Shown: positions 1 to 49,369 of the stretch, in pieces
Layout: every line of letters begins with the position of its first letter
Numbering within the stretch: position 1 is the first letter of the stretch
Assembly: GCA_026770705.1 (NCBI GenBank)
Contig: JANJGN010000034.1
Coordinates: forward strand, 4,154,001-4,218,000
DNA: 64,000 nt
Origin: Isurus oxyrinchus
Taxonomy: Eukaryota
Direction of reading: 5' to 3'
Translations under genes and position numbers: made by a program
The notes under the pieces: model-generated
Seen by the model: the letters and a program-made list of their open reading frames with translations, nothing else
Database searches by the model: none
What the model was told of the DNA's origin: nothing

Positions 1-3000
1 AACATGATGTAGTGCTTCATATCGACAACACCAAAGTCGCTGAAGTCACTGTTAATTCATGAAAGATTTTTTCAATAGCAGAGTTTAAGTCAGGTAAGAG
101 ATTGGGCAAACCATAGATCTAGAGGCAAGAGAGGGAAATAGGCACGACGTTATATTTTGCTCCAAATGGGGTTATGTCTTTGCTCCATATGGATGGCAAT
201 GAGACAAGTGTTTCACAATGTAGTTCGAGCATAATGGATACTAGTTAATGGTGGGTAATATGTTTAAGGTGGAAAGGACATAATATGTTTTTTTAACCTA
301 TTTCACAGCAGCATAATGCAATATTAATTGACTTTTTTGTTTTAAGATGCCTTTTAATATGATGCCATATAAGATTAAGTGAGGGCAGGGCTTGGGGCCA
401 AGAGGTCAAACAAAGGCAGTCCTCGATTGGAGAGGCAGCAACCCAGTTCTTGGTGGAATTCAACAAATTGCGTCGAAATACCATGTTCTGTTTGGAAGGT
501 ACTGAAGTGTCAAGTGTTTGCACTTCCTCATTAAAACTGTCAAATTGAGATAATAGTGTAGGAAGTGAGATGAGACAGCAACTGACAATATAACGAATCG
601 CTGTGGCTGGACGGAAAATTGGCAGGTCTGCAACCAACGGCTGCAAGGACATCTCAAAGGCTCTTGTCTTCTGCGATGGAAAATAAGATCATTTAGCATC
701 CACCGAAAATCAATTAAAATCCAGGTTTGTAGTGAAATGGAAGCTCAGTAATAGCTATATGCTTTAGAGAGTAAAGACGCCAAGGCAGCCTTGCATGGAT
801 CTTTAGAAGATAAGCTAAAATAAATGTATTTTGACAGACATACCCAGGCAGAGAACAACTTACTGGAAACTGCACAATTGTACAGCGCAGCTTTTTGCTC
901 CTTAGCACTTGAGGGTTCATTTTGAAGTCACAAAGGCTTGTGCTTCAAGAATATAGATGTCATAGTAGAAATGCACGCAAGTTGCCAGAAACCCAGCTTA
1001 TTGAAAATCTCGCAAACAGGTGTGTAGGTTATGCTGTTTGAGCAGTGTTTGATTTAGCACCATTCAAATTCAGGGCAGTCCAGAGATTAGCAGCGTTGAG
1101 AACACTCGATGCAACAGAAATGTCCCCAGTGCTATCGTTTGGAAAACAAATAATGGAGCATTTTTAAACGGATAAATATCGAGATGTGAGGAGTAGTTTA
1201 AAGTTGTCCATTCAATTAGTCATTTTGATCTATACATGTCATTGAAAGAGCTGTTTCAGATGATTCAATAATACTTTACCTTCTCTGCGATGACACAAAT
1301 TTGAGTGGGACACATGCAGTCCACATTGATGACAAAAACAGTGCCGGTTTGATTGCTTAACAATTGCAAAATCCTCTACGACTGGAATCTGGATTTTTCC
1401 CGTTGAATTACTCTGAATGTCGCCTCAGAATTCCATGCTTTTAAGTAAGAGATTTAAGTTCTCAAACTGCATTTAATTAGCTTCAACTCAGTCCAGTTCA
1501 TCCTGCTCTTAAAATTCTTGATATATTGTCCACCTCTCTTCTTCAGTAAAAATCTATTAGTCCGCCCACAAAGTCGTTGGGATTACACTTGCTGCTATTC
1601 GAATATAACACAAGTTTCAAAGATCCATTCATCACGCTTCATTCGTTACAGTCGTAACGACCAAAACACCCAAACACCTGATAATCTGCCCTAAATATCA
1701 CGAGATAACTTGATACCAGATCCATCTTGATGACAGTCCTTGAATACAGTTAGGAGGATTCATCATATTATCAATAAAATTCAGAAGAATTCGATACCGT
1801 GTTTTCCTTAGTGTATGAATCTGGAACAGCAATCAACGCCAGTGTAACCAAATATTTCCATCGTTTGTGATATGTGAAACGCTGCTGTATTAGAAAGATG
1901 ATTTAATATATATTCTACCGTTACTAAAAGGCTGATGATTCTCGAGATGTTCCCAAACATCTGCAAAGTTGTTGTAGTTCCCTTTATTTGTGAAATACTG
2001 CCATTGAAGAGCCCAATAATTGTTTCTGAAGTACGAAATGTCTGTAGTTATGTCTCTGAATGTCAGCTTGACATGAGATGACCTGGAACTTCATTAATGT
2101 ACAATTGAGATTACCAATATGTTGTCACGTTGATTTGCATACTGTTAACTCTCTCGGAACTGACAAATTGCCAAAAATTGTCAGCAACATTGTGTAAGCT
2201 TTTATACTTAATTGCATATGAGCAAGCCGTATGAAATTATTCGGAAGGAGTTAGAATTAAAATGCGGGTGAGAGAGACAGACAGACAGAATTAGCTAGCG
2301 AGAGAGGCGGAAGAAAGAGGGAGAGATGGAGAGAGAAGATCGAGTGGCTGATAGAGGTGTAGACAGTAAGAGAGAATGACCTCGCTGTGAAGGACCAACT
2401 TAAAGATGCATATTGATGCCAATAAAGACGCTTTGGCTTTTAATGAATTCGCTGAATAAACAATTTGGCAAGCCACAACGCAACATCAAGTCAAAGCAAA
2501 ATCCTGCATTTTTGTCGGCTGATGTTACTGTGGTGTTGGTTAACCAAAATTAAACGTGGGGCAAATTTCAATATTGATCATTTTTACGCTTTCAGACCTA
2601 AAGTGGAAGGAGGATGATAAAGTCATGCCAGTTTAGATTTAGACAAAAGAATGCATAGAACAATGTTGTCCAAGTATCTGCTTCTAAAGTATACATGGGT
2701 CACATTGTCGAATTACATTCAAGTAAATGGAATGGTGTTAGTGTCAGTCATCAAAGGAAGTGAGTTCGTTCTTCAAAATAATTAACTGAAGGAAATTTCT
2801 GCTCGTCTATTCCACTTAGGAACGTATTTGCACAAATGACAAACAATAATAAAGCAGAGAGAGGTAGACAAGATGTAGAACAGTGCATCATCAACAAATG
2901 TGGGAAGGCACTGCTAATTAATGTAAAGTTTCAGAAAAGCAGTGTGGAAGTTAAATAATGCACTTTACAAACTTTGCCAATTGGTGACAGTGGAGGGAAA

Positions 3001-7300: not shown

Positions 7301-7688
7301 TGAAGTCGAACTTTCATTTGATCATAACATTATCTAAAACGTTATTTTAAAAATTGAAAGTGCCATGCTTCATTCGCAAGGGTATTAACTAATAACATGA
7401 CCAAACACTTGATCAGCTGCAAAACCATATCACTAAATGGCATAATGCATGATGTTGACATTTGCACTCCTGGAAGCAGTTTCAGAAGAACACCTTGTTA
7501 TGAGTAGCATTCAGAACAAGTTGGTGCTGCCTTGAAATGTTGTTAAAATGTACCAAATGGCTTCAAGATTTATCTGTGAATTTCAGCTCGACATGAGATG
7601 ACCTGATATGATGCTAAAACTGAATTGAGATATGCGTACGTTATCAGGTTGATTTGGCTATTAACATGTATACTGTTAACTCTCACAG

Positions 7689-7709
7689 AACTGACAGAAT
7701 GCCAGGAAG
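7689..7709 (+). CDS. 21-nt type A micro-exon, (E)LTECQE
   Basis: ctgttaactctcacAG|aactgacagaatgccaggaag|GTaatg. Confidence 0.6.
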
Positions 7710-10700
7710 GTAATGCAATCGTTTTTCCTTCTGATTCCTATGTAATTGCTTAATTGATTTTTGAGCAGGCCACCTGGTATTATTGAGAGAGAGAGAGAGA
7801 GAGAGAAGAGAGAGAGAGGGAGAGATGCTAAGAGAGAGAGAGAGAGCGGGGTCCTATCAACGCAGGATCAACCAGGAGACATGATTGATTGCGAGTGGTG
7901 CCCCAGAGGCTTTCAGCGGAGCCCCATCAAGAACAAATTGGCAAAACAAGCTGTGTCCCACGTTCGATTCTGCTGTCGATGAGCTGGTCAAACAACACGA
8001 AAATAAACATAATGGGAAATATTATTATTTCATTCCACTTAATCATTCAAAGCTAAAGAAGAAAGGGGAAGGATTTAGAATTTTTGATAAAAAACTAATT
8101 TAAATACGATTGGCATGCAACCTTTTTCAATTTTAGCCTTTGGTCACTTTGACAAAAGACGTTCAATTATCTGAAATGCTGTTTGAGCCGGAGGTCAAAG
8201 TCAATGCCTTTTTTCTTTCTATTGATTTATTTCATGAAATTTATGGTCGACCATTTTAGATCTAGGAAACGATTTCCCTGACTAAGAGTCATTGATGAAG
8301 CAGAGTGAGGATGACTTGATGATGAGCTGTGGGTCGTTAACAGCACTGTGGAGAATTGAGTGTTAAAATTACACTGTTTTCGGATAGCAGAACTTAAATC
8401 AAATAAGGAATTGGATGGAATTTAGATCTTCGACGGCATCAGAGGCAACGGTTCATGATTTTGAAGTGGAACCAAACCTTGAAAGCATTTTTGGTACAAC
8501 CGGTTTGGCCGAGATGCAAATGTTGTCCAATTCAGTCGTGCATAATGAACACATGTCAAAGTAAAGTCATTCGTTTAAGTGGCAAACCATATATTTTTTC
8601 CCTATTTCACAGCAGTATGGTGAAATATTTTACAGTTCAAAAATAGTTCGATGTTTAGAAGGAACTGCAGATTCAAATGTTTTTGGTTTCCCTGGGTGCT
8701 GCTGGCTCATTCGAGCTGATTAGAACAGAACATGAGGACAGATAAGAAGCAATCACAGCACAAGCGTCCTAGCATCAACAGGAAATTGGACGGCCTACAC
8801 TCATATGGAACAGTGATATCACAAAGGAGTTCCATCTTCTCCACCGCTAAATTATGTCATGTGGCAACATTCGAAAAAATCAATCAGAAACCTATATTTG
8901 ACCCGGAAAAAGGATGCACATTATATTATACATAAGAATATGGGCACCAGATGACCTTGTATGCAATGAGCAAAATATATTTAATGGAGATTGTGAAACC
9001 GAAAAAAAAGCGTAATGGACACAAGACTCTTTACATTCAGCTTGTATGGCTACACTCCGCTAATCTGAAGCTTTTTGCACAGGAATACAGTGGTCGCAAT
9101 GAAATGTACATTAATACCCAGAGTCCCAGGCAATTCCACATCAATAGGACATGTACCTTACAGATGCTGTTGGAGCAGGGAATGCTTTAGAACCTTTTTT
9201 TAAAAAATATTGGGCAATCTAGAGAACACCAGTCATCAGGGTCACTTGATGGAAAGGAAAAAATACCACTGCAATCGCATGAAAAAGCAACGTGCACTGA
9301 TATCAGATGCTGAGGAGAAGACAGATGTAAGGTGCTAATTTATGGTGTTAATTTCATTTTTTTTATCTTCACTTTCCAACTGAAAGTGCTCTTTCAGATT
9401 ATGCCAATATATTTTTGACGTTCATGGTGCCATATATATGTTTGGACTGATGCCATCTACGTTCATTTATTTCCAACTTTGGAAATATAACAAAATTCTT
9501 ATTAGTAAAAAAATGATGCTATATAGGTTAACAAAGCGTTTAAAAGACTGACTGGCCTTCATTTCCCTTCAACCATCTGTCAATTACTTGCAGTTTGCAT
9601 AGGTTAAAAACTTTCTGACTGAAATTGTGCCCTTGACGAGCCAAGTCGTTATTTCACCTAAACTGAATAGCATTAAGCTGTGGCCATAACTGCCAGCCTT
9701 GACATGAGATGGCCTCTCTCGCCTCAAGGTAGAGTTCAGAAGCATGGCCGGAAAAGTGTGACTGCGGCCTCTTCGCAGTCCCAGTCGTAGCAAATATGTG
9801 ACTCTGGTTAAGAGTCAAATTTCCAATAAAGTGACTTCGGTTTCAACATTTCAGTTAAAGTCTATTACTGGTAACGTATGTTCTAAGGTTTAATGTGGTG
9901 TCCATGCTCTCTAAGTTAGGTAGCTCTTCAAGTATAACCTTTTCGCTTCGAATGTGGAACAGTGATTGATTATCCGATTTGCTACAGTGCCAACTTTTCG
10001 ATTACGGAAGTTTGACTGCCTTCCAACTATCCCCGTTCCCGACTCTAGCCGAAAATTAAACTTTTCGTCCAGGCTGGAACTTTGCTGGTACTGTTAAGAG
10101 CTATCTAATTTCCAGTTAATTTTCTATTACCCTCACGTAAGGTAACATCAAGAATGTAGACCAAACAATTGAACTTTCGCTTTCTTCTTAACAGCAAATT
10201 ATATTTCAACTGCTTGTGTTGTATTCCATCAAAGGCTGCAACGTTGCTTCTCGAATCGAAATCTGCCTATCGACGAAATCCAGTCTTTAACCCCTACTAT
10301 AATTTTATCTCATTTGTCGTCATGAAAAAAGACCGTTTGGACACGTGTTAAAATATTACTTTTAACCGTTTGGAAATATAAAATGAACAATTCCCCCTTT
10401 CCATGTTAAACAGATGAACCTAATTCAACTGAATTTTTGAAACCGAAGGCACCTTAATGGAAACTTCACTATTGGCCTAAGTACATTCATGTACTTCAGC
10501 TGATCTGTTTTCCATCCGATATTCCAAAAGCATGTGTTTCAGATATTCTAGCCTCATACCAGATATCCAGAATCATTTCCAGAATCCCAGATAATTCAGA
10601 ATCTCGAAAAATGCGATCAATGATATACTGTTTCCACAGTTTTTGATTATTCAATATGAAAGTGCAGGGCAATTAAGACTGCAGCAGTCTTCAGGAAATC

Positions 10701-13700
10701 TTATATTTTGGAAATTCTCCCGCTGCTACAGTTTGAAAAAGGAGAGGTCTCAGATAAAAGAACCTGATGAAAATGCTGATAAGAGGTGGTGACTTATGTT
10801 GTCAATTAGCTTAGGTATTTTGATCAACCCACACAAATTGAAAGAACTGTTTCTCTTGATGCAATTATACTATTCCCAGTGTACTGTCATAAACATTTGA
10901 GTGGTACTTAGGCAAGCAGTCTTCAAATAAGCGTCATGAAGTACTAATTGCATAACGATTGCAACGTCCTAGAATATGAAAGGAAAGATCAAGATGTCCA
11001 TCTAGAATTGTCCTGCTGAATTACATTAGATTTGGTGTGCCTTGATGTCAATAAAGATGGACCAGATCTCAAGTCTCTTTTAATTCTCGTCAATTTTTAA
11101 CATCATCCTGCCTACAACACATAGGAAAATTTGGTAATTTAATTTCTAACATAAAATTATATTGTTCCGACCTTGTAGTCAGGATTTATTTTCATGATAA
11201 GAGGAACTTCTAAAATAATTTCGAAAATTCATCTATCAAGCTAAAAATGAAAGACTATTTTCAAATAATATAGCCAAGCATGTGATCATCTGCACAAATA
11301 TTGCACGTGGTGAATTAATGTGAGGCAATGATTGATTAAGCACCTGAAATTAGTTTGGGAACATTCAACACATTATGAATGACATTCAGAACAAGCTGAT
11401 GCTGTTGCTTTCCTTAGTCTATGATAATGTAACAGCAAACAATGTCACTACCGATTTTTTTCGGCGTTCTGACATATATCAAATGCAGCACTAGGGGAAT
11501 TATGTCATTATAAAAAAAATCTAAGTTGATAAAAAAGTTGTTAATTTCCCATATTCTTCCACACAGCTGTCGATTTGATGATTTTTTCTGACCTTTAAAT
11601 CATTCTTTCTGAAAGCCAAAAGTTGAAAAGCCACAGTATTGTTTCTGTTCTAAATAGGTTGAAGCTGTGTCTGCGAATGTCAGCTTGACATGAGAAGGCC
11701 TGCTATCTCAGCAAAGTGGAGAAGAGACATTTAGACAGTGCCCCGTTGTTTTGGATATTCAGGTGCATAGTGGTAACTACAACGGAACTGGCAAAATACC
11801 AAGAAATTAAAGCAAAACCTTTGCCTTTCCAAATATTTTTGCTTCATCTTTGAGCAATTCGTATAGCATTATTGAGGTAGAGACAAAGACATATATAGAG
11901 ATAGATCAGGGGAATGGACGGAAGGGGACAGATAAAGCCCTATCAGTGAAGCATCAATCGGGAGACCCGACTGATCGCAATTGCTCACGTTTTGCATTTT
12001 AGCAAAGTCTCTTGTAAAATTGTAAAATACTGAAATAATGTTCTTGATGAGCTAAATTCTTGTTACATTTGTATCAAATGGCTTGAAGCTCTTCTTGCGA
12101 ATGTGAGCTTGATAAGATATTGCCTGAGATCTCGAATAAGTAGCGTTGACATAGCTTTTTTTTTTGTCGGGATTAATTGGATGTTCAGATGTTTACTGTT
12201 AACTTCTCACAGATCTGACGACATGCCAGGAAGGTAAGACCGTAAAATTTATCGCAGCGCAGCATCTCATCTTGGCAGTTCCCCGCGTTGTTTTCTGCTT
12301 TCGATGCCATGGTAATTGTTGATTGGAAGGTAAATGTGAAGAGAAATGCATATTTCTAAATGCCATTCAACTTTTCAGAGCTAAAGAAGGAAGGAAAAGA
12401 TAAAAACAGGACTCAAATGTCATTTAACTCGCTTCAACGCATTTCATGATCCACTTGCCTTTATTTTTTCTGAGTACTTGGCGAATTCCTTTTTAAGTTA
12501 CAATTCAAGTCTTTCGACCCTGAAGTCAGAATTTTATTTCTTGTTCAGAGAAATGCTACAAAAATTCTGAAAAACTTTCAGAAGAAATGAATGATGTTAA
12601 AAGCAAAATACTACGTATTTTGGAAGTATGAGACAGAAACAAGCAATGCTCCAAAAACAAAATAGGCCTTACGCATCTGTGGAGAAAGAAAATGAGCTAA
12701 ACTTTCCAGTCAACACAACTCTTGATAATGCCAGTTTATGATGGTGTTTATCTTGAAGGATGGTGCTATAACAGCAAGCAAAGCAATTATAATAAAGTAC
12801 AAACAACACTTGTTATATATCAAATACCGCACTCACATAAATATGATGTAGCATGCCTTGCTAAAGGGGAAGAGATTGCGTTGTGGCATTGTGCTGGGCT
12901 AATAATCTAAATACCCTCCGTAATGTTCTGGGGACCTGTGTTCGAATTTTGCCATGGCAATGGCAGAATTTCAATTCAATAGAGATTTGGAATTGAAAGT
13001 CTAATGATAGTCATTGAATCATTGTCAATTCGTTTAAAAACTCATCTGTTACAAACATGTCCTTTTGTGGTCTGGCCTGCATGTAGCTCCAGACGAACGA
13101 CAATGCCATAAGCTCTTAAATGTCTTCTGAACAAGGGCAATTAGGGATGGAAAATAAATTCTGGCCTAACCAGTGACGTCCAGGTCACGTACAATAAATT
13201 GTGTGATCAAGCAGCGGATGATCGCCAGATTCTTCCAAACATCTGTCTTGGTGTTGAAGATTCTTCCTTTGGAATTGCTGAAAAACTGTTCTTGACGGAC
13301 CAACTCATTGTTACATTTGCATCAGGTGGCTTGATGTTGTGCCTGCAAATGCCAGCTTGACAAGGCATAGCCTGATATCTCGACAAAGTAGCGTTGAAAT
13401 ATATATTTTTTTTGTTGGGATACTTGGATATTAAGAAGTATACTGTTAACTTCTCACAGAACTGACGAGATTCGAGGAAGGTAAGACTGTAAAATTTATC
13501 ACAGTGTGGCATCTCATCACAGCTTTTCCCGCGCTGTTTTCTGCTTTCGATGCTCTGGTCATGGTTGAATGGAAGGTAAACGTGAAGAGAAATACAATTT
13601 TAAATGCTGTTCAACTTTTCAGAGCTAAATAGGGAAGGAAAAGATAAAAACAGGACACATATCTCATTTAATTTGCTTTATCGCTTTTCTTGATCCACCT

Positions 13701-25199: not shown

Positions 25200-25234
<35 letters not shown>

Positions 25235-31200: not shown

Positions 31201-34200
31201 GGAGATCGTAAAAGGAGACAGATCGATTTGACAGGCAACAAGACAGTCTTTGACAGAATGCATAACATGAAGTTGAAATACCATTTGCTGTTTAGAAAGA
31301 AATTAAGCGTTAGTTGTTTACACTTCTTTGATGCTGCTGTCTCATTTGAAGATATTAGCACAGAATTTGAGATTAGACAGAAATTAACATTATAACTAAC
31401 GTCCGAGAATGGGAAGGGAATTCAACGATCTGCAATGATCTTGAACAGCGTCATTTGGAAGGTGTTCAATGTTGCGTAGTTGAAAAAGCGATCCTATAGC
31501 AAATTTTAAAAAAAAAATAATCAGAAATCGGCATTTCTATTGAAAAAGGATATTCTGTTTTAACTTGATGATTGGAAGAGTATGGATGCCAGTCAACAAA
31601 CTATGAAACAACAATATAGGGTAGAAATAATAGGGTTCAGCAGCGATTGTGAAATAGAAAACAAATCAGTGAAACGTGAATTTTGACCAGCCGTTTCATG
31701 CCCTTCAGCTCGTGTGGTTCAATTCTATATTCCAAATGCCATGTGCTTCAGCAATTCAGGAGTCGTACCCGAAATGCACATGAATGGCCAGAAACCCAGA
31801 AAATTCTGAAGCTCGCAAACATGTGTCTAGGATATACGATCTGATCAGTGCATGATTTAACACCAGTCAAATTCAGGACAGCCGAGAAAGCAGAAGAAGT
31901 TAGGAACTTTTATCTCTTGGACACCCTCCGAATGCAATCGTTTGAAAGATAGAGGGCACTTATTTTATAAAAGGATTTAGTTGAAGATTTATGTTGTTAA
32001 TTAAATTGTTATCTTTATCTGCACACTCCAATTGAAAGAACAGTTCCAAAAGTGCCATAAGATTATTTTTACGATGATAATTATTTCATTGAGTCTCATG
32101 CATTCCAAGCCCATACGACGTCTGTTTAGGATTAATTGCATAACGATTGCAATGTCCCAGAATATGAAGCGATTGAGCTAGGCCTACTTCCAGATTTGTC
32201 CGTGAAAATAAATATCAGGTATGATTCCCAATGCTGAGCCATTAGCTTTTCCGAACTCTCTACAGGAACATTTTGACAGAACACAGCAGAACGTGAAAAC
32301 GATTTCCCATGTTTATTTCTGCTTCTGACATTGTGCTAATATATCATCTGAAAATAGATGTTGGGAGAAATACTTTTAATGTCCTTTTAATTCATCTAGA
32401 ATTAATTAAGATGGGAGGAGGTAAGGACACTGTAATTCGTGAAAAAAAAAAAACAAATGCATTAAATAAAGCCGGCAAGCAAACTTCTTCAATATTATGC
32501 ATTTGTCACCTTGACAAGTCATATTCCAGTAACTGGAATAGTTTTTGCGTTGGAGATCAAAAGTAAGGCTTTTACTCTTCCAAATGAAAAAAAAAACAGA
32601 AAATTTCTGCGTTCAATGTCCGATGTATGAAACTCCTCCTCCAACTGGCAAGCAGTGATGCAGCAGACAGAGAGCCGAAAGTGATGTAAGATGTAAATTG
32701 TCAAAATGTTGATGAAGTGACGGCTAATTTTATTAACAGACCATAAATCAGATAAGGGTTTGGAACAAGTTTCGAAAGTCGGAGGCATTAGAAGTAAAGC
32801 TGCATGGAATAGAAAGGAAACCTATGCTTGTCATATTTGTGCAACATCTGGGTGGACAAAGAAGCGACAGTTGCATAATTTAACTTCGAGCGTAATGAAG
32901 GAGGAGCATATTTTAAACATGAATAATGGAAAATTCTTTATATAGAGTAATATAACATTTTGTGACATTTAACTGAACCCTTTAGAATTAAAGTATGCGA
33001 GTTACAATAGTTATTAGGGTGTGATGCCTGGAATTAGAAGGAAGAAGGATATCTATGGGAGAAGCAACAACAGAGTCTTTTGTTCAATTTAGCACTTGGG
33101 ATGAAGTGTTTGCATATCCGTGATGGAACTGGCTCATTTGAGAATAATAGTGCTGGTCTTGAGATAAGGAAGTAATTATTAATACAGCGAACTTTCGAGG
33201 CTGGAGGGGAATTGGACGGTCTGCAATTATCGGAAACAGGGGCGGTTTGCAGTGGTCCAATTGTCTCTAATCATATTGAGCTCCAATAGCATTAACTGAA
33301 TAAATATTCAAAAATCCACATTTGATGAGGAGAGAATGCATAGCAAAATGATTTGGAATCACCGACTATTGAAGCATGTCTACATAGCAGCAAAGTTTGC
33401 CTGTAAAGAATATAACAGGGATTGTGAAACAGAAAACACCTTAGGGGAGATGGACGCTTGCCCAGCGTGGCTCATACCCTTCTGCTCATTTGGGTTCACT
33501 CCTACATTTGAAATGTATACAGGTCAGTAATGCAGGCTTCAAAGCTTAAAGGCAATCGAATTACAAGGACGTTGTAACTTTCAGAATTCCGAAATCACCT
33601 CTTTAGGATAAGTTACTTGAGCAGTGCTTGACTTAGCAATATAGAGAACAACAGTCATCAGGATTCTGAACCCTTGGAAAGGCTCCTGCTGCCATCGTTT
33701 GAAAAACAAATGACACAGATAAAATGAACTGATTTAAACAAATCCAGTAAAGTGGTGAGCATTTATGCTGTAAAGGAATTTATTTTTTTTGATCTACAAA
33801 CACCAATTTGACGAGCTGTTTAAAATGATGCCACAATTCCTTCCCACGCGTATGATGAAGAATAATGAATTGGGAGGTATGCAGCCTACCTTCATCTAAC
33901 AGCAGTTCAGGGATAATTTGCTAATGATCGCAAAGTCCTGGGTTATGAATGAGTCATCTTGACCTACCTATGAACTTATCCCTTATGAAATGCATTGTAT
34001 ACGATTCAGAATCTCTTGATGCTAATAAATATTCCACGGTTCAAATCAAATTTAAATGGCTTCAATATTATTTACGATCCCACTGCATTTAAAACTTTGG
34101 AGGCCGTTGACGCCCTCACTTGTAAATTAACACACAATTATTCTCACTTAAAGTCGGGATTTAAGTTGTTGATCACGAGATCAATGGCATTTTCTCCCAA

Positions 34201-37200
34201 AACCTTTTTTTTTTAAATAACAATGCTTTATTCAAAAGATTCGCAACAAACAAAATGACCAATCGTTTGATCATGTACGCAAATATAGCACGAGAAGACT
34301 GTATGTTAGCTGCTGATTGGCTACACTATATGAAGCTTAAGAACATTTGCCTCATGACGACTAACATTCATGATAATTTGATGTTATTATTTGTTTTGAT
34401 GCATGACACCTAAAACAGCAACAACGCCAATGTACCAACATATTTCCACATTTCCTACTATATCAAAAGCTCTTTTTGAGTAGATGTGATGTCATGCAGA
34501 TGGCAAAGACGATTAAAGTGATGATGATATTCCAGTTTCTTCCAACCATCTTTCTTATTCTTTTAGTTATCTGCCTTTGAATCATTTCTGATTCAAATTG
34601 TGTCCTTGAATACCCTTAATAGATCTGCAAGCAAATTGCTTGAAGCCAAGTCAGTGAAAGTCAGCGTGTCATGAGGTGAACTAAGGCCTCCTCAATGTGC
34701 TGTTGAAAAATGGATTTGAAGCAAGTATGATTTAGAAATTCACCAGTCTCCTGTGACCTCTTACGGAACTGACAAAGTGCCAGGAATGTAAGATAGAAAT
34801 ATGTGACATTTGCATTTCAATCTAATAGATTTGTTTTCGCACCCCACATGATATTATTGAGAGAGGGAGAGAAAGATAAAGAGGGAAAGAGAAAGAGAGA
34901 GCGTGAGAGAGAGAGAGAGAGATGAGAGGGGGAGGGAGTGAGAGAGAGAAAATAGGTGTGGGGGGCCGAGAGAGAAAGAGAGGGTGAGGGAGGCCATCAC
35001 AATTAAGGAATAATTCATATATTAGAAAAGTTCGATTTATAATGCTTTAGTAACAAAGTAGCCATATGTAAAGTGATGATTCATGTCGTTATGGAAATAA
35101 ATTATTTTAACCTAAGCACGTAAATTGAAAGAGTAGCTTCAGGTGATGCCATAAAGTTTTTCCACGTGTACAGTGACAAATTCTTTACTGGGTCACATGC
35201 AGTTTACTTTCTTATAACGGCAGTTGTGGGCTAATTATATAACGGTTGCAAAGCCCCACAATACGTATTGAGTGAGCTATACCTACATCTTGTTTTGACC
35301 CTTTTGTATTACACTGACTGTCGACTCATAAAGTCTTGTTGTTAAGTCGTGCCAACTATCATCATGGTCTCCCTGAGTTTAAAACTTCCATCCACTTTGC
35401 TGTCTCGTTTTTAGCCAAAAAATCAAATGTTCCAAACCTGAAATCGGGATTTGGGTTGCTGATAACATAATCTACGAAAGCACGTCAACGTTCTATTTGT
35501 CAATCTTCTTTTGAAGCCTAATAACGAATAATAGTGCCTAACAACTGCTCACCTTCATAGATATTGCACTCGGTAACTTGATACCAGAAGCTAATTAGTC
35601 ACACACCTTGAAGTAGTTAGGGAAAATTCAGTTTATTATGAATACAAGTAGGTTGGGAGCTTAGCCTAAATAGCCAAGTGGTTATGGTACTGGGTTTGTA
35701 ACCCCAAAATCAAGAGTTCAAATCTCACAATGGCAAACTATGAAACAATGTAAATTCATCTGAAACAGATGGAAACGGGTTTGTACTCGAAAGAGTTACA
35801 AGTAGGTTGGGCTTGGCCCAAATAGCCAAGTGGTTATGGTACTGGGTTTGTAACCCCAAGATCAAGAGTTCAAATCTCACAATGGGAAATAATGTAACTT
35901 CATCTGAAACAGGATTGTACTCGAAAGAGTTACAAATAGTTGTGATATATTGCTTGGCCTAAATAGCCAAGTGGTTATGGTACTGGGTTTGTAACCCCAA
36001 GATCAAGAGTTCAAATCTCATAAAAGCGAAATAATGTAACTTCATTGGAAACAGGTTTGTACTCGAAAGAGTTGCAAGTAGGTTGGGCTTGGCATAAATA
36101 GACAAGTGGTTATGGTACTGGGTTTGTAAGCCCCAGATCAAGAGTTCAAATCTCACAATGGCAAAATATGAAACAATGTAACTTCATCTGATACAGGTTT
36201 ATACTCGAAAAAGTTACAAATAATTGTGATATATTGCTTAGCCTAAGTAGCCAAGTGGTTATGGTACTGGGTATGTAACCCCAAGATCAAGAGTTCAAAT
36301 CTCATATTGGCAAAACTATGAAATAATGTAACTTCATTGGAAACAGGTTTGTACTCGAAAGAGTTACAAGTAGGTTGGGCTTGGCCTAAATAGCCAAGTG
36401 GTTATGGTACTGGGTTTGTAACCCCAAGATCAAAGAGTTCAAATCTCATAATGGCAAACTATGAAACTATGTAACTTCATCTGAATAGGAACAGACTGAA
36501 ACGGGTTTGAACTCGAAAGAGTTACAAGTAGGTTGGAAGGCTTGGCCCAAATAGCCAAGTGGTTATGGTACTGGGTTTGTAAATGCAAGATCAAGAGATG
36601 GAATCTCACAATGGCTAACTATGAAACAATGTGACCTCTGGGTCAGTGAATGTGGAAACTGCACCTGGAAACAGTCTGGGGACAGCTAGAGTTGCCTGAT
36701 TGGCTGCTAATCCTATTGGAGTATTAATAACAGGTCCGTTCACACCTGGGTATTAAATGCTCCTAATTATTCTAATATCTGAAGGTATGTCCCCCAAGCT
36801 CCCATGCGAGCTTGGCCTAAATAGCTAAGTGGTTATGGTACTGGGCTTGTAACCCCAAGATCAAGAGTTCAAACCTCACAATGGGAATCAATGTAACTTC
36901 AACTGAATAGGAACAGATGGAAACGTGTTTGTACTCAAAAGAATTACAGCATTAACAGAGCTCACTTTGGTACATAGGCTCTTACATTCTAACATACCTA
37001 ACAAGAAGAATGCGCTTTTGGCCTAAATAGCCAAGTGGTTATGGTACTGGGTTTGTAACCCGAAGATCAAGAGTTCAAATCTCACAAAGGCAAACTATGA
37101 AACAATGTAAGTTCATCTGAAACAGATCGAAATGGGTTTGTACTCGAAGGAGTTACAAGTAGGTTGCAAGGCTTGGCCTAAATAGCAACTGGTTATGGTA

Positions 37201-40200
37201 CTGGGCTTGTAACCCCAAGATCAAGAGTTTAAATCTCACCATGGCAAATTATGAAACAATGTAATTTTATCTGAATAGGAACAGATGGAAACGTGTGTGT
37301 ACTTGAAAGAGTTACAAGTAGGTTGTAGTTTCTCTTTTGTTGATTTTATAACAGCAAATAACGCCATTTTGCCTAAATACTTCAAACAATTGACATTTAT
37401 CAACTTCACCATTAGGTGAAATATAATGCCATATATCCTACTATAGCAAAACTGAAGTTGGCTATAATCCAGATTCTTCAAACCACCTTATTGTTGTTGA
37501 CGTTTCCTGCCATTGAATCATTTCTGAAGGTAATAATGTCCCTAAAAACCTAAATTATTGTTAGATTTGTACCAAATGACTTGGAACTTTTTCTGAGAAT
37601 GGTTGTTTGATATGAGATGGCCTGATAGCTCGTCAAAGAAGATATGAAATGTGGATTTGTTTTCAGCGTGATTTGAATAGTAATATGGATATAAACACAG
37701 AAGATGTTAACACTCACAGGACTGAAAAAAAGTGCCAGGAGTGTAAGGCAGGAACGTTGCGGTACATTTCTGTGAAAGTCCAGCAGGAAGAGAGATATGG
37801 CTACGAATGCGGTTGTGAAGGATTTTGGTGAACCCACCCTAAATTCAATATGACCTTATGCAGTGAGAAGTCTCGCAAAAGCTAGATCCCACTTTTGTTT
37901 CGGTGTTAATTGCTCATCAACATTTCATGAAGAGGGAAAGATATTTTTTGCCTTTTTTCACCATGAAGAGGCAAAGAAGAAGGACAACGGCAATGCCAGA
38001 AATTTCCTTATAAAAGCAAGGGCATAAAAAACAGTTGACGAGCTATCTTTTTCAGATTGATCTATGAGTGCCTTTCAAAAATGATGACCCGGTATCTCGA
38101 ATATTGTTTGTGATGTAGGCCAAGGACAATGTGTTTGATCCTCCTAATAACTAATTGGATGACATTTCTCCTCGTCAACATCGGATGAAGGCAAGTATTC
38201 TCCCAAATGAGAACTCATGACGAAGTAGAGAGAGAGATGGACGCGATGTACAACGTAAGTGTGTATTATTGTAATTTACAGAATGTTTTTGAAAATCAGA
38301 GCATAAATTGGGAAGGGCATTTGAACATTTCATAATATCGGAGCTATCAGTGCATCAACTTGAAAAGTAAACAATGCTTTTGATACTATTGCTCCTACTG
38401 GAAGGGTGATAATGCAATGAAATATCCGCTGTCAAATATGTCAGGAGCATAAGAATGAAACGTTGAAACATGAACATATTTTTATTGTGCAACATTGAGA
38501 ATTGTTTACCTATTTAACAGCAGCATAATATTTCATATTTTGCTAGTTTGTCACTAAGCCTTTTAGTATGATTTCAAGAGAGATACAAGGATAGAAGGGC
38601 TTGAAGTCTGGAGTTCCTAGAAACACAGACATCGATTGCAGCGGCAACAACAATCTTGGAATCTATGGAATTATGTTTGATGTTGCATTTAGAAGGGACT
38701 GAGATGCCAGGTACCTGATTTTCCTTGGTAATGCTGGCTCAGGTGAGGGTAATAACGCAGAACTTTAGATGAGATATCGGTTCATATTCCTACGCACATA
38801 GAAGCCTGGAGAGAAAATGTGATCTTCTGCAATTATCAGGAACAGGGAGCTAAGGAATATTTCATCCCTCTGTAATAGTAAAGCAGATTTATTTTTTGTT
38901 GATAAATTTCAGTAAGTCAGTCAAAAATCCATATATGATGCGATTAGAATGCACAGGTAGATCTACTTGACTTAGAGAGTGCTGATTCCCAGTCAACCTT
39001 GCATCAGACATTAGAATACCTGTTACTAGTAAAGTAGTTTAATCAATATTGTGAAAGCTTTAAGGATTTGATGAAAACTGGGAGTCCTGAGCAGCGTAGC
39101 TTCGTGCAGTGCTGTTTGCATGGCGTTCCTTTGATAAACCAAAGGCTTCTGATTCACGAATTTGGATGTCATAACTGAAATTAATATGAATTAGCATAAA
39201 GACAGAACATTCAGAATCCTCAATACAAATATCTTGCATAAACTGTTTGAGGAGTTTTTGATTTGGAAACATTAAAATTAAGAGCAATTTATAACAGAGC
39301 AGTCATTAAGGAAAGAGATTGCTTGGATACGCACTGACCTCCATTGTTTGATAAACATATGAGGCAGATTTAAGGAGCTGAAAATTATTTGGAAGTGAGG
39401 CGAGGTTTTAAGCTGTTGACAAAATATGTTACTTTGATGAGTGCACAAAGATCGAAAGAGCATTTTTGATGATGCCATATTACTTTTTGCAATTGTAAAG
39501 CGCCCAATACTTGATTGTGATGCAGGCATTCTCACTGAAAATAAGCGTGGTGTAGGGACAATTACATAGCTATTGCTAAGTCCCAGGATCTGAAACGATT
39601 GAGCTGGTCCTCCCTTTCGTTCTGTCCCAGCAGAATTGCACTGCCTTGGATTCAGAACGACTTGATTTTAACAGCGTTATTCCAGTTTTCATATCCCAAT
39701 TAATTGATTCCAAATTATTGAAGGCCTTCCTGCATTTAAAAGCTTTGATTACTTTGCCGTCTGTTTTCCAACTTAAAACTCAATTATTCCCTTCTTGGAG
39801 CTGGGAATTCAATAGCTGATAAAGTAATCTGCGATATTTACTCTCCAAAAACTTCTAAAACCTATTCATCTTTTGTTGCCTGAAAGTCGCTTAAATAAAA
39901 ACTATGCCTAAAGATCTTATTACCTTTACTAATTTCACTCTTGAGGACTTGATGCTAAATGTAGGTTTTCACAGCGCTTGAAGCAGTTCATGAAGATTGA
40001 CCTTATTATGAATAACATTAGGTACAACCTCATGTTCTTCTTTAGCCTGATGGTTGGTATTAAAAGAAATGAATGCCACTTTACCTAAATATTTCCAACA
40101 TGTCGCATATATCAAACGCTGCATTGGCAGCAAGGTGATGTATCGTGCATTACTCAATAACTCGGTCTTGGTTCCCTAGATGCATTCAAATATCTTTCTT

Positions 40201-43200
40201 GTTGATGACGTTCTCGCCTTTGTTTTTTTTATTTCTGACTGAACCACTGTCCTTGAAGAGCAACTCATCCTTCTATATTAAAATAAAAAAAGTAAGAATG
40301 GCTTGATGCAACTCCACAGGACAAGAGCTGGCCTAATAACTCATCAAAGTAGAGTTGAACTCTAGGTTTGATGTCAGTATATTCTGGCTAATCATTATTA
40401 AGCTGACAACTCTCATTCCCCAGGTAAAGTGCCAGGAATTCAAAGCGGTAACTTTCTGTTTGCAATGCTAACTGCAATTTTTGAGGCAGCCTCATGGCCG
40501 AGAGAGTGCGAGAAAGCGAGAGAGAGGGAAAGGGAGAGAGAGGGAGAGAGACAGAGCAAGAAAGAGAGAGAGAGAGAGAAAGAGAGAGACAGAGAGATAG
40601 GGAAATTTCCAGCAAGGCAATCTTCATCAAGATTTAAATATGTATCTCCCAAACATTTTGCCAAAGCAGCATACCGGGTTCGGCTTTGTTTTCAAAGTGG
40701 TGGTCATTCTCAATTCCAGAATCAAAACATATACTTAAATAATTGTTTATCCCTTTAATGACGCAGCACTGACAAAAATGGCAGGATGAAATTTCAGAAC
40801 TGCGGTACTTGAAGCAAACGCATCTTTCTGGATTGGTGAATAAGCAGTCTCAGATATAGGGGTCAGTCATGTTGATGAAGGCATTAACGTACGTGGAATA
40901 ATACTTGGGCCGTCAGTCAAATTCATTGACGTTGACCTTCCGAATTAATAATGGGAGGACCTCTTTCCTCATGCTTTTTTTTTAGATTGATAAAGTTGTC
41001 TCCCTACGGGAAGTGGCGTTGGTGCTGTTGTTTACACCGTTCATTTCAATGTGCATCTTGAAGTAATCTAATTGATGATACATAAGCGATACGTGTAAAT
41101 GGGATAGACGAATGGATCAAAATCAGATATTTGAAGGTGCAAGCACTATTGTGTAGAATTTAGTGGAGAAACTATTTTTTTGGTGACATTTAGCCTATGA
41201 CTTGTTAGGTCACAGTTCAACAATTTGGCTCTTGCCAAACTCAGTCCGAACAGGCACGTGGAGGATGATGATGTGGTAATGTGGAAGAAGGATTTGGTAC
41301 GACGATGAAGGTGTAATACTGCTACTCAAAGAAATGCTTTTAAAACTGAGGCAGTGGGATTGATCTGTTGGAAAGAATACAAAGCTTGCCTTCTAGAATA
41401 TAAGAATGCATTGAGGGCCACAACAGAATTAAATGCAAAAGACAGTGATTTGAGTGGGTTAATTAACATTTTCAGGGAGGTCACGTGTTTTTTTCGACGG
41501 TTGATGAATGAAGATTTAATCATAAGTACATCGTACATGAGTGGAAAGCTAAAAATAATTTAGTGTCCGATGGAGCGATGGATTAGCTTGATTGTCCATT
41601 TTCTTTGATAAAAATGGGAGGCGGATTGGACTTCACTTTATTGGAGTAGTAGGTTCTATAATACCTACCTAGAAATCAAATATTCCATCATTTTTTATGC
41701 ATATCCGATGTTCAGTTTAAATTAACTAATTTAGAGAATACAAGTCACCTGGCAAATTAACACCAGCATTGCAGTGGTATTACAATTCAGAAGGCATTAT
41801 GATGCAAACCATTCCGTATTGGAAGCTGAGGCGTCTCACGAGCGCAGCCTCATGCAACGCTATTTTTATTGGCTCCACTCGGTTTGACAACAAGTCCTGA
41901 TTCAGAAAGAGAAGCTTCAAAATTGTTATCGATCCAAAATTCAGAAAGTCCAGGGAATCCGAAGCAGATGGACGTTTCCACAAACGTTTAGTTTAGCAAG
42001 ATGGAGTGGGGCAATCTTTTTGGATTATGAACACTCAAAATTTGATACCACTTGATAAAAACGTTAGGCAGATTTAAGATTAGCACCGCCACAAACGTTC
42101 AACATATTAACAATAGCAGTGAGAAGGCGTTGATTTTCCTGATCCTCCCATGTGATGATTCTATAACATATTTGAGCAAAATAACACAAAGCATGTGAAG
42201 AGGGTACTATGAATCCAGCGACCGCTGGAGCAATGAATTCGATCGACTTTATCTCTGAAAACAGGAAGAGAGAGATTGCCTTCAGCCACTGTAGTAGAAC
42301 AATAAGTCCTGAAACACATTTCGATAAATCAAGTTTACAACCAAGATTGATGCATATACAATACCGAGAAAAAGATGATAATTTAGAGAGTTGCATAAAT
42401 AAGTATTTAATATCGCTGTACATGCTACCTTTATTTCACTTTCAAAGAGATTGTGACACAGAACACACTATAAAGGAAAGCAAAATGACGTGCACTGCCT
42501 CATTGCTTCTACAGCTTCCATGCCAATTCGCTTTGCCAATGGCTCAAGAATGAAGGCTTTGTAACAATTTGAACTTCCAAAAAAATCCAGACATTGACAT
42601 AAACGCCGCCAAATACGTAGGGTGCATTGCATAGGCATTTTTGCTATCTTAGGAAGAGATAGGGGAGCTGCCATCAGGGAATGTGGTCATTTGGAATTAC
42701 GCACATTTGTATGGCCTGATAAAGACTTACACAGATTTAAGCTAAGTCGTCCCTGAAGAAGCTTCACAATTTACCACATGATAAAAGTAGCATTCAGAAA
42801 ACACCAACTTTCTTGTTCATCTAATTCGAAGTTTCTATAACAGCAAGCAATGTCTTCGATCTGAAACAATGCCAACGTTTCACATTCCTCAAAAAACTGG
42901 CAACAGGAGAAATATAATGCAATCTGAATTGCTCACGTGATTGAGATACTGAGGATATTGGGTACTTCTCACAATTTTTATGTTAAATTGGGAACTGGGT
43001 GCTGGTGTTGATTTTGTTATTAATAAAAAAACGCGGCGAGAAAGGAAGAGAGAGCACGAAGAGATAGAGGCGGTTTTCGAGAGAGCAGGCTGAAAGAGAA
43101 TGGGAGAGAGGGATAATCGCGGTGATGGATGGAACAGAAGTGGACATTTAAAGCGAAGAATTGGCTTTTGCCTTTAACCTCAGCCTCTTCCTCATTGTTT

Positions 43201-46200
43201 TGAACTTACTCTGTTCGAGGTCTCATCATGCCACTACCCTTACCTTTTTATTCTTCTCACTTCTGTATTCAATCTTCAAACAAATATGAATGAGGAAGGA
43301 CATATTTTTCATCCCTCGCACCACGTACAAATAATTAAGAAATCACAAAGTAATTTTTTTAAAAAAATCAGTGGTTTAATAAAACTTATAATTCAGGCTT
43401 GGAGAACTTTGAGCTCTGATTCAGCTTGGGGCCATGCACATTTTGAAGAAAGTTCTGAGCTTCTGTTACATTTTGCTTGTTTCGGAGGTCAAAAGCAGTG
43501 TGTTGTGCGTTCTTCAGAGCTAATTGAAGGAAGATTATTCATATCAAATTCAAACGTTGGAAGTTGTTCTCCCAATATACCAGCCAGAAACAAATTGAAG
43601 GAGTTGGACGACATGGAATCTATTGCTCGGCAACATAGATGCGGTTGAAGAAAATGTTATATCAGAGGGGATTATGCAAACCTAAGTAAAATCAGTATTC
43701 TAAAGGTATTTATTTAACTATCTGAAAAGAGGTTGAAAAATATTCGGAAAGTAAACTTCCCTGAGAAAGACCTGACATAGACCAAATAGCTGAACGTACT
43801 CATTTTTCATAAATATCTTTCATATTGATTATATGATTGTCTTTGCTCAGTATCAAGTTAGCCACTATTCCAGGAATTTGATTCTTGCAGCGCTGGCTAT
43901 ACATGAAAAAAAATCTTCTGAAAGTACTTATAAATGGCTGGTGATCATGGCAGGAACTTTGTAAATTAAAGCATCTCCCTCTTTTCTTGCCTCTAGAAAG
44001 GACAGTACTGAAGACGGATGTAGCATTATTAAGTGAGCCGTAGTTTCTCCAAATTATTGCTGCGTGCATCATCTCACTATCATTTGTCAAACTTATAAGG
44101 GTCTGGCACATACAAGGTTATGCTGGGTGCATTGCTCTTACAATGATGTCTGAAGAAAGTGCGAAGGGGTCAATGTGCTGTTGCACAGAAACGTGTAAAG
44201 ATATGAGCATGGAGAGAGCTCCAAATCTTTACTCTACCCGTGGAAACATTTCTGCTCGCTAAAGAAGACTTACATTTAACCAACAGAATAAAGCGAAAAA
44301 AACTTTTAAAAGACAAAATGTCATGCGACCTGCACAAGAATTGCTTGGGCAATTTTCAGGCTTGAACTGAAAGTGGAAAGTAACATTTCTGCCACAAAAT
44401 TGCCAAACAATAGCATATCCAATAACAGAGAATAGCAACATCACCCCTTTACAATCAGTCGTATTACCATTGCTAAATCCAACATGATCAGCATACTTGG
44501 GCAGGGTGGGGGTTGCTGCTTTTGGTTAGAAAATCAACTGGACCACCGCATAAATATTTTGTCTGCATGGGAAGGGAAGATCAATGGTTGGGAATTCTGC
44601 GATGATCGTGCTGGCAAGCCATAATGCTGAGGTCAGGAGCGTGACGGGTACTGTCCGCTTCCCTAGACGATTGAGGCTCCAACACACACACAAACCCCGA
44701 CACTGTCCCTGACAAAGCAGAACCATTGATTGGCACCCATCTAAAACTTTTAGCTTTTATGTCCTCCACCACCGATCACAGTAGAAGCAGAATGTGCCAC
44801 AGACAAAATGCATTACAGCTCAGAAAGACTTCATCGATGGCCCTAAAGAGTCCCGTGACCTGTACTGCCTTGAACAACAGGAGCACCAGATGCATCAGAA
44901 CACCACCACATTAAATTTACCCATCATGCCAAAAACATTATGACATGGAACTATATTGCCGTCCCATCACTCTCACTGAGTCAAAATCCTGGAATTCACT
45001 TCCTAATAATGCTATGGATGCATAACCATCACATGAGTTGCACTGGATTGTGAACGCATTCAGCACCACCTTACAAAGGCTGTGAAGCAAAGGCAAGAAA
45101 TGCTGGCACAGCGACTGACACCCAAATCACATTAAAGAATAACAAGGATAATAGCAATAAATATACCATCTCACGCATAGCCCTCGAACCTGAAAACTAA
45201 ATTTGGAATGCGACTTATGGCATGTCTTGTGTCAGAGGATTTTTTTTTATTATTATTTAACTTAACTGCATTCCTTGTGAAGCCATTTCACCAATTTCAT
45301 CAATTTCAAATTGCTCATAGCTGTGACGTTCATTGAGACACTTTGCAATGCATCAATGGATTTGGTATTCTGGAAAACGAACTGCATCAGATAAAAAGCC
45401 ATTGGAAATCTCAATTTACACGTCCATTCCTGCTAATCTGAGTCATGAACTTTTTGAAGTCATTTCGAAAATTAAAATATCAAATGGCTAATCTCATTGT
45501 GAAATTTGTGCGCTCCTCAGCTATATATTTGTCATTAGGGTTGTGCAAATTGTTCTGATGGTTATGAAGAACGCACGTTATAGCAACATGCGAGTTGGCC
45601 ATTCAGACGATCGAGTCATTTCAGCAATTTCAGCTAATTTACAGCACGGTTCCATTTTTAGTTCTTCTCAGGTCTTTGTGTCTCACATCCATTTATTGAT
45701 GGTTGAAATATGTATCGTGCAGGAGCAATACATATCCATACAGTTTGGAAATTGAAGAGGTTCTGAACCTATTACCGAATTACATGACCATTGGACTAAT
45801 GAGGTATTCCTGTGTCTCAGGCTCCTCGAAAAGTGAAGGGAAAGCGATCTGATCCACAATACCATCAGCTGTTATCGAAATACTAAAACGACATTGAAAG
45901 TGCATTTAACCTTTAATATCTCATAATACACAAGCACAGATACCATAAACTTACCCCACAACATAATTCTTGAAAAATATGTTACCACCTGGTGACAATA
46001 ACTGCACTTCACTCAATGATACTGCGACTTTCCATTGTCTGAGGAGCTCAGAAATATACAGGTCGTTCCGGATGGGTGCAAATTCAGGAGTTGGATACCA
46101 ATATCAATTCTTCACGTCTTTAAATTAGAGCAACCTAGCTAAAAATGCGAATATTCCAATATCTATTTGGATTAAAAGTTGTATCTGAGTCGGTACTATA

Positions 46201-48140: not shown

Positions 48141-48141
48141 T

Positions 48142-49355: not shown

Positions 49356-49369
49356 GCAGTCACGCTCGT

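Follow-up and report, generated by a model that had tools for sequence, protein, structure and literature searches.

Tandem 21-nt putative micro-exons encoding one heptad each in the shark Isurus oxyrinchus: a likely internal segment of a very large rod/SPRY gene

The closest described systems are the chicken BG genes, whose tail is encoded, according to passages in PMC5938342, by strings of 21-nucleotide (nt) exons of one heptad each with the first codon split 1+2, and for which parts of PMC4046983 give 13-36 tail exons of 21 or 24 nt. Butyrophilins (BTN/BTNL), as portrayed in sections of PMC4046983 and PMC12841164, also display heptad micro-exons, followed by a C-terminal B30.2/SPRY exon. 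This study concerns an array of 21-nt segments, hereafter slots, on contig JANJGN010000034.1 (C34) of the shark Isurus oxyrinchus (assembly GCA_026770705.1). The array was noticed in a stretch of 64,000 nt (C34:4,154,001-4,218,000, the window), where an initial annotation interpreted it as the hidden coiled-coil segment of a BG/butyrophilin-like gene. Positions are those of the window, negative coordinates lying upstream of its start and plus values above 64 kb downstream; the 987 kb of DNA examined around the locus lie between -300 kb and +687 kb. Judged by their behaviour in sequence comparisons, the slots are supported as conserved, protein-coding, phase-1 micro-exons of one heptad each. 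It appears rather likely that they form an internal segment of a single plus-strand gene of ~0.8 Mb, whose predicted product is a very long alpha-helical rod with a SPRY (B30.2-type) domain at its end. In the literature covered (mostly outside subscription journals), no description was found of shark butyrophilin heptads, of such 21-nt exons or of cartilaginous-fish B30.2 genes with coiled-coil micro-exons.

Direct reading of the window bore out eleven 21-nt segments preceded by AG, followed by GT and ending in G, which fall into two types. Type A reads ..ctcacag/AACTGACAAAATGCCAGGAAG/gtaag and gives the peptide L-T-K-C-Q-E, type B reads ..ttcag/AGCTAAAGAAGAAGGAAGAAG/gtaag and gives L-K-K-K-E-E, both exon sequences being consensuses. 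The repeated organization is apparent in 12000-14600, where ...tactgttaacttctcacag/ATCTGACGACATGCCAGGAAG/gtaagac is followed 1,247 nt further on by an identical layout with AACTGACGAGATTCGAGGAAG. Where both types survive, B lies 166-437 nt after A. Profiles were built from the 7 type A and 4 type B window exons with their flanks (threshold E<=1), and slots were scored as intact when AG preceded and GT followed, from a per-slot read-out and an AG-N21-GT scan. The initial annotation had claimed 28 slots in the window; the profiles re-found 24, to which a truncated remnant is added below. Split codons are given in brackets.

2159..2179, plus strand: decayed type A slot; no AG, 1-nt shift, in-frame stop
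2596..2616, plus strand: decayed type B slot; AG present, GT gone
7689..7709, plus strand: type A micro-exon, AG..GT intact; (E)LTECQE
8053..8073, plus strand: decayed type B slot; indel, GT gone
11786..11806, plus strand: decayed type A slot; both AG and GT gone
12030..17154, plus strand: young tandem block of four to five ~1.25-kb units, ~80% identical, with one intact type A exon each
12213..12233, plus strand: type A micro-exon, intact, first of five in the young block; (D)LTTCQE
12379..12399, plus strand: decayed type B slot of the young block; donor AT, common to the copies at 13623 and 14853
13460..13480, plus strand: type A micro-exon, intact; (E)LTRFEE
13623..13643, plus strand: decayed type B slot; GT gone
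14687..14707, plus strand: type A micro-exon, intact; (E)LRIFQE
14853..14873, plus strand: decayed type B slot; GT gone
15868..15888, plus strand: type A micro-exon, intact; (E)LTTCRE, Leu written TTG
17117..17137, plus strand: type A micro-exon, intact; (E)LTTCQE
17483..17503, plus strand: type B micro-exon, intact; (E)LKHKGD, Leu written TTA
22995..23015, plus strand: decayed type B slot; GT shifted by one base
25045..25065, plus strand: decayed type A slot; AG changed to AT, GT present
25459..25479, plus strand: type B micro-exon, intact; (E)LKTKEE, Leu written CTA
27880..27900, plus strand: type A micro-exon, intact; (E)LTKCQQ
28307..28327, plus strand: type B micro-exon, intact; (V)LTKKEE, Leu written CTC
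32400..32420, plus strand: type B micro-exon, intact, the final intact 21-nt exon of the array; (E)LIKMGG
34767..34787, plus strand: decayed type A slot; AG changed to GG, final base T
37720..37740, plus strand: type A slot of ambiguous status and twelfth with AG..GT; a 1-nt insertion with a shifted GT keeps 21 nt and alters the peptide (LKKSAR)
37969..37989, plus strand: decayed type B slot; donor GC
40426..40439, plus strand: truncated type A remnant, 3' 14 nt only
40767..40787, plus strand: decayed slot scored as type B (E 0.38), GT gone; final recognisable slot

Reading frames behaved as initially described. Phase 0 meets a stop at codon 2 (TGA in type A, TAA in type B), and the frame skipping two bases, phase 1, is open with leucine encoded by CTG, TTG, TTA, CTA or CTC in 11 of 11 intact window exons. 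The three junctions then put forward correspond to exon ends and starts at 7709/12213, 25479/27880 and 27900/28307, and the slots are indeed invisible to open reading frame (ORF) finders.

The array is not confined to 2158-43349, as was first proposed, since it reaches 83.5 kb upstream of the window start, which makes it about three times the size initially given. The profile search recovered 72 distinct slots, all on the plus strand, from -83,502 to +40,787 (~125 kb), 48 of them upstream of the window and 24 inside it; no plus-strand slot was recovered by the profiles in the 200 kb further upstream. Fifty-nine slots are gapless (28 A, 31 B) and 33 of these (18 A, 15 B) have kept both AG and GT, so that 33 intact and about 39 decayed slots are spread across the 125 kb. 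Some slots vary in length or donor: the one at -40,243 has 18 nt, the one at -5,409 possibly 27 nt or else a GC donor, and the one at -78,479 a GC donor. Chicken BG tails are similar in this respect, a few exons of 18, 24 or 27 nt being mentioned in the portions of PMC5938342 and PMC4046983 dealing with them; the same portions describe changes in exon number through duplication of exon-intron units. Here too, in line with the initial annotation, self-comparison revealed multiplication by tandem duplication, exon-intron units of 0.2-2.3 kb having been copied whole at 69-92% identity throughout the array. Within the young block, the AT donor common to three type B copies indicates that B was lost before the block multiplied, the outcome being five consecutive type A heptads; splice signals are nearly invariant there and exon bodies vary. 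A 181-nt type A unit had 7 matches in the 4.98-Gb genome, 7/7 of them within C34:4,108,844-4,171,154, and a unit confined to one locus is not a dispersed repeat. Tracts of (GA)n, 60-100 nt long, were also observed at 7785-7846, 25164-25234, 34859-34949 and 40500-40597. Since they sit 60-120 nt 3' of the type A slots at 7689, 25045 and 34767 and of the remnant at 40426, they belong to the ancestral A-to-B intron, where a role as purine-rich intronic splicing element is conceivable, as is the mere inheritance of a microsatellite.

A second approach used the general micro-exon pattern YAG-N21-GTRA behind a pyrimidine tract, with 27 other lengths between 12 and 39 nt scanned in the same way. Over 224 kb (the window with flanks of 100 kb on its upstream and 60 kb on its downstream side), the 21-nt pattern occurred 44 times on the plus strand and 13 times on the minus strand, and the other 27 lengths occurred 12-28 times each on the plus strand. 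Both the strand bias and the 21-nt excess are thus above chance.

The coding signature was equally consistent. Internal stops occurred in 0 of the 33 AG..GT exons, codon 2 was Leu, Ile or Val in 32 and the final base was G in 31. Type A exons (n=18) had L at codon 2 in 16 cases, followed by T (12) at codon 3, K (12) at codon 4, C (13) or F (3) at codon 5, Q (14) at codon 6 and E (11) at codon 7; the corresponding figures for type B (n=15) were L 14, K 13, K 8, K 10, E 7 or G 7, and E 10 or D 4. Intact exons accordingly read [E/D]-L-T-K-C-Q-E or [E/D]-L-K-K-K-E/G-E/D, the split codon being G plus AA, AG, AT or AC (Glu or Asp) in all but one of the 33. Constraint at the protein level, as anticipated in the initial annotation, was found in the leucine frame: in a Nei-Gojobori-type count over all pairs of AG..GT exons, which are non-independent paralogues compared with no significance test, the ratio of nonsynonymous to synonymous differences per site (pN/pS) was 0.54 for type A and 0.37 for type B, versus 1.49 and 1.51 (type A) and 1.04 and 0.98 (type B) in the two other frames, which served as control.

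Conservation of exons relative to their surroundings was examined at two levels. Inside the array, gapped pairwise identity of type A slots was 0.73 in the exon, 0.68-0.69 in -40..-1, about 0.60 in +20..+140 and 0.45-0.5 further out; for type B it was 0.64 in the exon, about 0.5 in -40..-21, 0.54 in -20..-1, about 0.5 in +20..+140 and 0.31-0.47 beyond about 200 nt. The contrast is blurred here because the units are young copies. A paralogous array with type A and B exons was detected ~0.9 Mb away (C34:5,084,784-5,108,037, profiles run on C34:5.07-5.13 Mb), with heptads LKKCKN, LKKCEE, MKKYEE, LAHCQR, FKKTEE, LTKCQT, VQKNDQ, LTQTKD, LSECQE and LKKCQE. Ungapped identity between 17 intact strong type A exons here and 8 there was 0.27 in -60..-41, 0.54 in -20..-1, 0.63 in the exon, 0.78 in +1..+6 and 0.29 in +7..+26, versus 0.28-0.31 for shuffled copies (0.37 for +1..+6). 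Likeness to the paralogue is therefore limited to the exon and its splice signals, with flanks at shuffle level, which argues against both a dead motif and a satellite.

The 33 intact exons were joined by script into a conceptual peptide of 230 residues, with one junction stop due to the final T of the exon at -60,360, and compared with 158 proteins. It matched residues 378-576 of XP_042192744.1, a 1697-amino acid (aa) 'nuclear-pore anchor-like' protein of Callorhinchus milii, at 30% identity over 214 residues (E 1.2e-9; next-best of the 158 proteins, E 0.09). Against this score of 52.4 bits, 200 residue shuffles and 200 within-heptad shuffles averaged 18 and never exceeded 25.8. The conceptual peptide thus resembles the Cys-heptad region of a coiled-coil/SPRY protein, in which [ED]LxxC[QKR] occurs 9 times versus 0.11 expected. 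XP_042192744.1 has a long helical region, a C-terminal SPRY domain and, at its N-terminus, a hydrophobic stretch followed by a basic cluster. With its Cys-heptad region as query, no relatives appeared among shorter proteins, and at similar length two Callorhinchus models alone were matched. These models, XP_042192744.1 and XP_007898089.1 ('myosin-2 heavy chain-like'), are uncharacterised database entries, compared here as proteins; they share long helical Cys-studded heptads with [ED]LxxC[QKR] and a C-terminal SPRY domain, which in XP_042192744.1 is 36% identical to an exon at +662.5 kb described below. XP_042192744.1 differs in its N-terminal hydrophobic-plus-basic segment, for which no convincing counterpart was found at the shark locus, and in the weak match (E 0.036) of the 27/36-nt part of that locus. 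By sequence, the nearest relatives of the array are unstudied chondrichthyan models.

These results bear on the possibility that the slots are a chance motif in a satellite or transposon-derived repeat without any gene. The slots do reside in tandem units that include SINE-like (short interspersed element-like) pieces and (GA)n tracts. Yet the excess is limited to one strand and to 21 nt, the unit occurs at a single locus, pN/pS falls below 1 in one frame only, paralogue conservation is restricted to exon and splice sites, and the Callorhinchus peptide match lies far above shuffles, which together make a chance origin extremely improbable.

Comparison with chicken BG genes revealed both likenesses and differences. 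The predicted helical tail of one-heptad 21-nt exons and the identical 1+2 split codon are shared, as far as passages of PMC5938342 describe them. BG genes are however compact, their tail lying behind a signal exon, a single IgV (immunoglobulin variable-like) exon and, immediately ahead of the heptads, a transmembrane exon, none of which was found here; they end in a 3' untranslated region exon without B30.2, whereas here a SPRY exon lies far downstream; and their hydrophobic residues stand at codons 4 and 7 instead of codons 2 and 5 (sections of PMC5938342 and PMC4046983). No terminal exon was recognised after the array. Butyrophilins, in the parts of PMC4046983 and PMC12841164 that treat them, differ by IgV and IgC (constant-like) ectodomains and a transmembrane segment, again not found here, and by few heptads, against tens here and probably hundreds of micro-exons in the gene. 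By analogy, the array may work like the chicken BG tail, and the BG/butyrophilin reading is partly supported: one-heptad, phase-1, 21-nt exons with the same split codon stood, while immunoglobulin (Ig) and transmembrane exons were not found and the heptad register differed.

Schistosoma micro-exon genes (MEGs) share a principle with the array, their coding sequence consisting largely of symmetric micro-exons whose skipping is frame-neutral. They differ in encoding small secreted flatworm proteins without heptads, SPRY domain or homology to the present locus.

A SPRY exon was located at +662,455..663,024 on the plus strand. It was the sole SPRY exon in the 987 kb examined, scored 53.4 bits (cut-off 26.3; PRY below detection at E<=0.001) and ends in a stop. 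Its acceptor, ..tttacag/TA.., splits the codon 1+2, in keeping with the phase at the 3' ends of the 21-nt exons. The B30.2 exon to be looked for downstream according to the initial annotation is hence present, on the same strand and in matching phase, but it lies 662 kb away and its link to the array is one that we infer. Against XP_042192744.1 the exon gave E 5.6e-20 (36% identity). Its closest relatives were chondrichthyan fragments (43-55% identity), including Scyliorhinus and Leucoraja sequences, and its best named longer relatives were butyrophilin-like proteins of gar and arowana (31-32%), a further likeness to BTN/BTNL. When the SPRY exon from a genome-wide SPRY family search served as protein query, five related SPRY exons were listed on C34, two on the minus strand (2.709 and 3.474 Mb) and three on the plus strand (4.8165, 6.396 and 7.496 Mb). 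This arrangement would fit a cluster of genes of this kind.

Between array and SPRY exon, the prevailing candidate lengths change. In the array (-84 to +42 kb), plus/minus counts were 36/5 for 21 nt, 11/6 for 27 nt and 15/11 for 36 nt; from +42 to +663 kb they were 52/53, 115/60 and 103/50, with 27/36-nt candidates dense from about +100 to +575 kb. Good upstream plus-strand candidates were found at -143,734 (36 nt), -142,680, -140,037, -133,128, -132,060 and about -107,000. The 21-nt array of the paralogue is preceded by 200 kb with a plus-strand excess of 27/36-nt candidates. Three candidates, all pattern matches only, lie in the window downstream of the array:

47413..47448, plus strand: candidate 36-nt phase-1 micro-exon; LKQSKHDQKEA; possible link to the 27/36-nt part
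56993..57022, plus strand: candidate 30-nt phase-1 micro-exon; KYKQELDTK
57795..57821, plus strand: candidate 27-nt phase-1 micro-exon; QELAAKET

The fewest assumptions are needed for a single gene of ~807 kb that would extend from -143.7 kb to +663.0 kb and contain the 21-nt array as an internal module, although we infer the joins between its parts. Rather than a self-contained 43-kb tail, the array would most likely be an internal segment of this ~0.8-Mb gene, whose other exons would be mostly of 27 and 36 nt.

As an alternative, the array could constitute a separate BG-like gene that starts from a promoter near a CpG-rich block 2 kb ahead of the first slot, terminates before about +47 kb and is no part of the SPRY gene. 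CpG-island-like blocks do occur just before the first slot (-86,099..-85,299) and after the final one (+51.5-52.2 kb), and 21-nt exons are almost exclusive to the array, 27 and 36 nt prevailing elsewhere in the region. However, neither a first or terminal exon nor an Ig or transmembrane exon was found, plus-strand 27/36-nt candidates flank the array on both sides, the array of the paralogue is internal, following its 200 kb of 27/36-nt excess, and the matching Callorhinchus region is itself internal (residues 378-576 of 1697). A separate gene is accordingly considered quite improbable. The upstream block showed an observed/expected CpG ratio of 1.08, and its 5' edge carries a TATAAAAAG motif. 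The downstream one is the core (51501-52201, GC 0.56, observed/expected 0.80) of a GC-richer block at 48000-56000 (GC 0.43-0.45 versus about 0.38 around), in which no Pfam domain was found on either strand; it is a possible internal or alternative promoter located between the 21-nt slots and the 27/36-nt candidates.

Upstream exons were sought extensively. The signal, IgV, IgC and transmembrane exons to be looked for there according to the initial annotation were not found in the 216 kb before the first slot. V-set/Ig domains were absent from 25 plus-strand ORFs of at least 65 aa (-100 to -80 kb) and 120 plus-strand ORFs of at least 85 aa (-300 to -100 kb), and Pfam searches on 303 ORFs (119 + 132 + 52, the last in the window) gave no V-set, Ig or further SPRY, only two sub-threshold matches to RVT_1 and DEC-1_N. 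Crude scans for hydrophobic-plus-basic segments in -200 to -83.4 kb returned one weak ATG candidate at -157,715 and nothing else, and tblastn with the N-terminus of XP_042192744.1 gave a weak best match (E 0.41). A minus-strand cluster at -175.3 kb, obtained by tblastn when N-terminal parts of 28 long SPRY proteins served as queries (E 0.46-2.8), was rejected, as it displayed RING-finger cysteine patterns. A Narcine protein of 1645 aa, considered as a form with Ig domains plus a long tail, was likewise discarded, since the model seems to merge two ordinary butyrophilins.

Several points weigh against a single functional ~0.8-Mb gene. Its 5' end was not found, nor was any Ig, transmembrane or signal exon in the upstream searches just described, and the interval from 32,420 to about +83 kb, where the first dense 27/36-nt run begins, holds few candidates, all at pattern level. 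A peptide from 97 candidate 27/36-nt exons had a best E of 0.009 (0.036 for XP_042192744.1) and 4 junction stops. An internal promoter that separates two genes could reside in the CpG-rich block at 51.5-52.2 kb. Lys at position d of the type B heptads is poor for a canonical coiled coil. The profile used to ascertain slots was derived from the window exons themselves, and the pN/pS pairs are non-independent, as stated above. In the young block, exons are ~78% and introns ~80% identical, so that splice signals alone stand out. A splice site has been lost in 26 of the 59 gapless slots, besides further slots bearing indels, meaning that much of the array is dead, and the exon at -60,360 would give a stop at its junction with the next exon. 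Finally, contigs of 5 same-species presumed-RNA runs, compared with 12450-32449, showed no joint at a micro-exon, by a method hardly able to show 21-nt exons.

Some of these points would suit an exon graveyard, i.e. a once-coding array in a long intron of a giant gene with no slot spliced now: AG or GT has been lost in about half of the slots, and one AG..GT exon would produce a stop. Nevertheless, 33 slots are still open in frame, of exact length and flanked by both splice sites, young-block splice signals are nearly invariant while exon bodies vary, and the similarity to the paralogue, being limited to exon and splice sites, implies long-acting selection. Decayed slots beside working copies would also be the expected residue of birth-and-death turnover of units. 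A graveyard is for these reasons thought unlikely.

In the single-gene reading, the intact exons would be joined by the spliceosome, and since every exon has 21 nt and is in phase 1 at both ends, any combination of them preserves the reading frame. Each exon-intron unit duplicated in tandem would add 7 or 14 residues to the rod, and loss of a splice site would shorten it with the frame unharmed. Some 30 heptads would give about 210-230 helical residues with Leu at position a, and with Cys or Phe (type A) or Lys (type B) at position d. Such an arrangement points to a dimeric zipper in which cysteines form a ladder along the core, broken by weaker, highly charged turns, Lys/Glu-rich B-type turns being predicted between the Cys/Phe heptads. 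The segment would have 27/36-nt micro-exons on either side, upstream at -144 to -107 kb and downstream from about +47 up to +575 kb, and beyond these the SPRY exon at +662.5 kb. From what is generally known of micro-exon splicing, purine-rich exon bodies and invariant TACTGTTAAC..CACAG and GTAAG signals would aid recognition of such short exons.

If transcribed as proposed, the locus would show that the BG way of encoding each heptad in its own 21-nt exon also exists in a cartilaginous fish, at a DNA scale about twenty times larger, and its rod plus SPRY without detected Ig domain would be a gene architecture that was not found in print. It would be a clean natural example of a protein rod growing and shrinking in steps of 7 residues with the frame undamaged, and would illustrate how selection can keep a 21-nt exon and its splice signals while the surroundings randomise. 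Such genes escape ORF finders and probably many gene predictors too, and their database relatives are misleadingly named ('nuclear-pore anchor-like', 'myosin-2 heavy chain-like', 'TRIM39-like'). More tentatively, and with somewhat less than even confidence, cartilaginous fishes may possess a cluster of megabase-scale genes, each with hundreds of frame-neutral micro-exons, encoding rods hundreds of nm long with a SPRY/B30.2 sensor tip, the 21-nt array serving as a dedicated Leu/Cys zipper module whose length would be tuned as exon-intron units are born and lost, and perhaps also by the choice of exons. If true, these genes would be among the most exon-rich known and would form an undescribed, ectodomain-less branch of the butyrophilin/BG design.

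The contigs of the presumed-RNA runs matched 12450-32449 as pieces of 40-71 nt at 90-95% identity, on SINE-like repeats. Pieces at 90-95% identity from many contigs and at high depth were observed at 13132-13177, 14357-14398, 19847-19896, 29075-29119 and 29243-29456; these are copies of an abundant, probably transcribed interspersed repeat present in array introns. On the first slots and the upstream CpG block, the same contigs gave chance pieces of 19-22 nt only, the CpG block being uncovered.

Upstream of the array, minus-strand micro-exon candidates at -300 to -205 kb and a minus-strand SPRY exon (C34:3,474,116-3,474,661) were recorded; a neighbouring gene of like kind thus appears to lie head to head with that of the array. 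By eye, its SPRY exon resembles the 'TRIM39-like' model of Scyliorhinus canicula at an identity of about three-quarters. In the window itself, tandem tRNA-derived SINE-like copies (35643-37325) are inserted in the decayed tail of the array; Tandem Repeats Finder (TRF) gave a period of 284 nt, self-matches occurred at offsets of ~154 nt and multiples, and Rfam tRNA matches lay at 35964-36021 and 37021-37092, a bacterial-style tRNA scan of the DNA finding nothing. A near-perfect palindrome of 240 nt (4084-4323) is 95% identical to its own reverse complement. The RVT_1 match is a weak fragment at 62713-62994 on the plus strand (E 0.0012, below the Pfam cut-off) and is probably a decayed retroelement.

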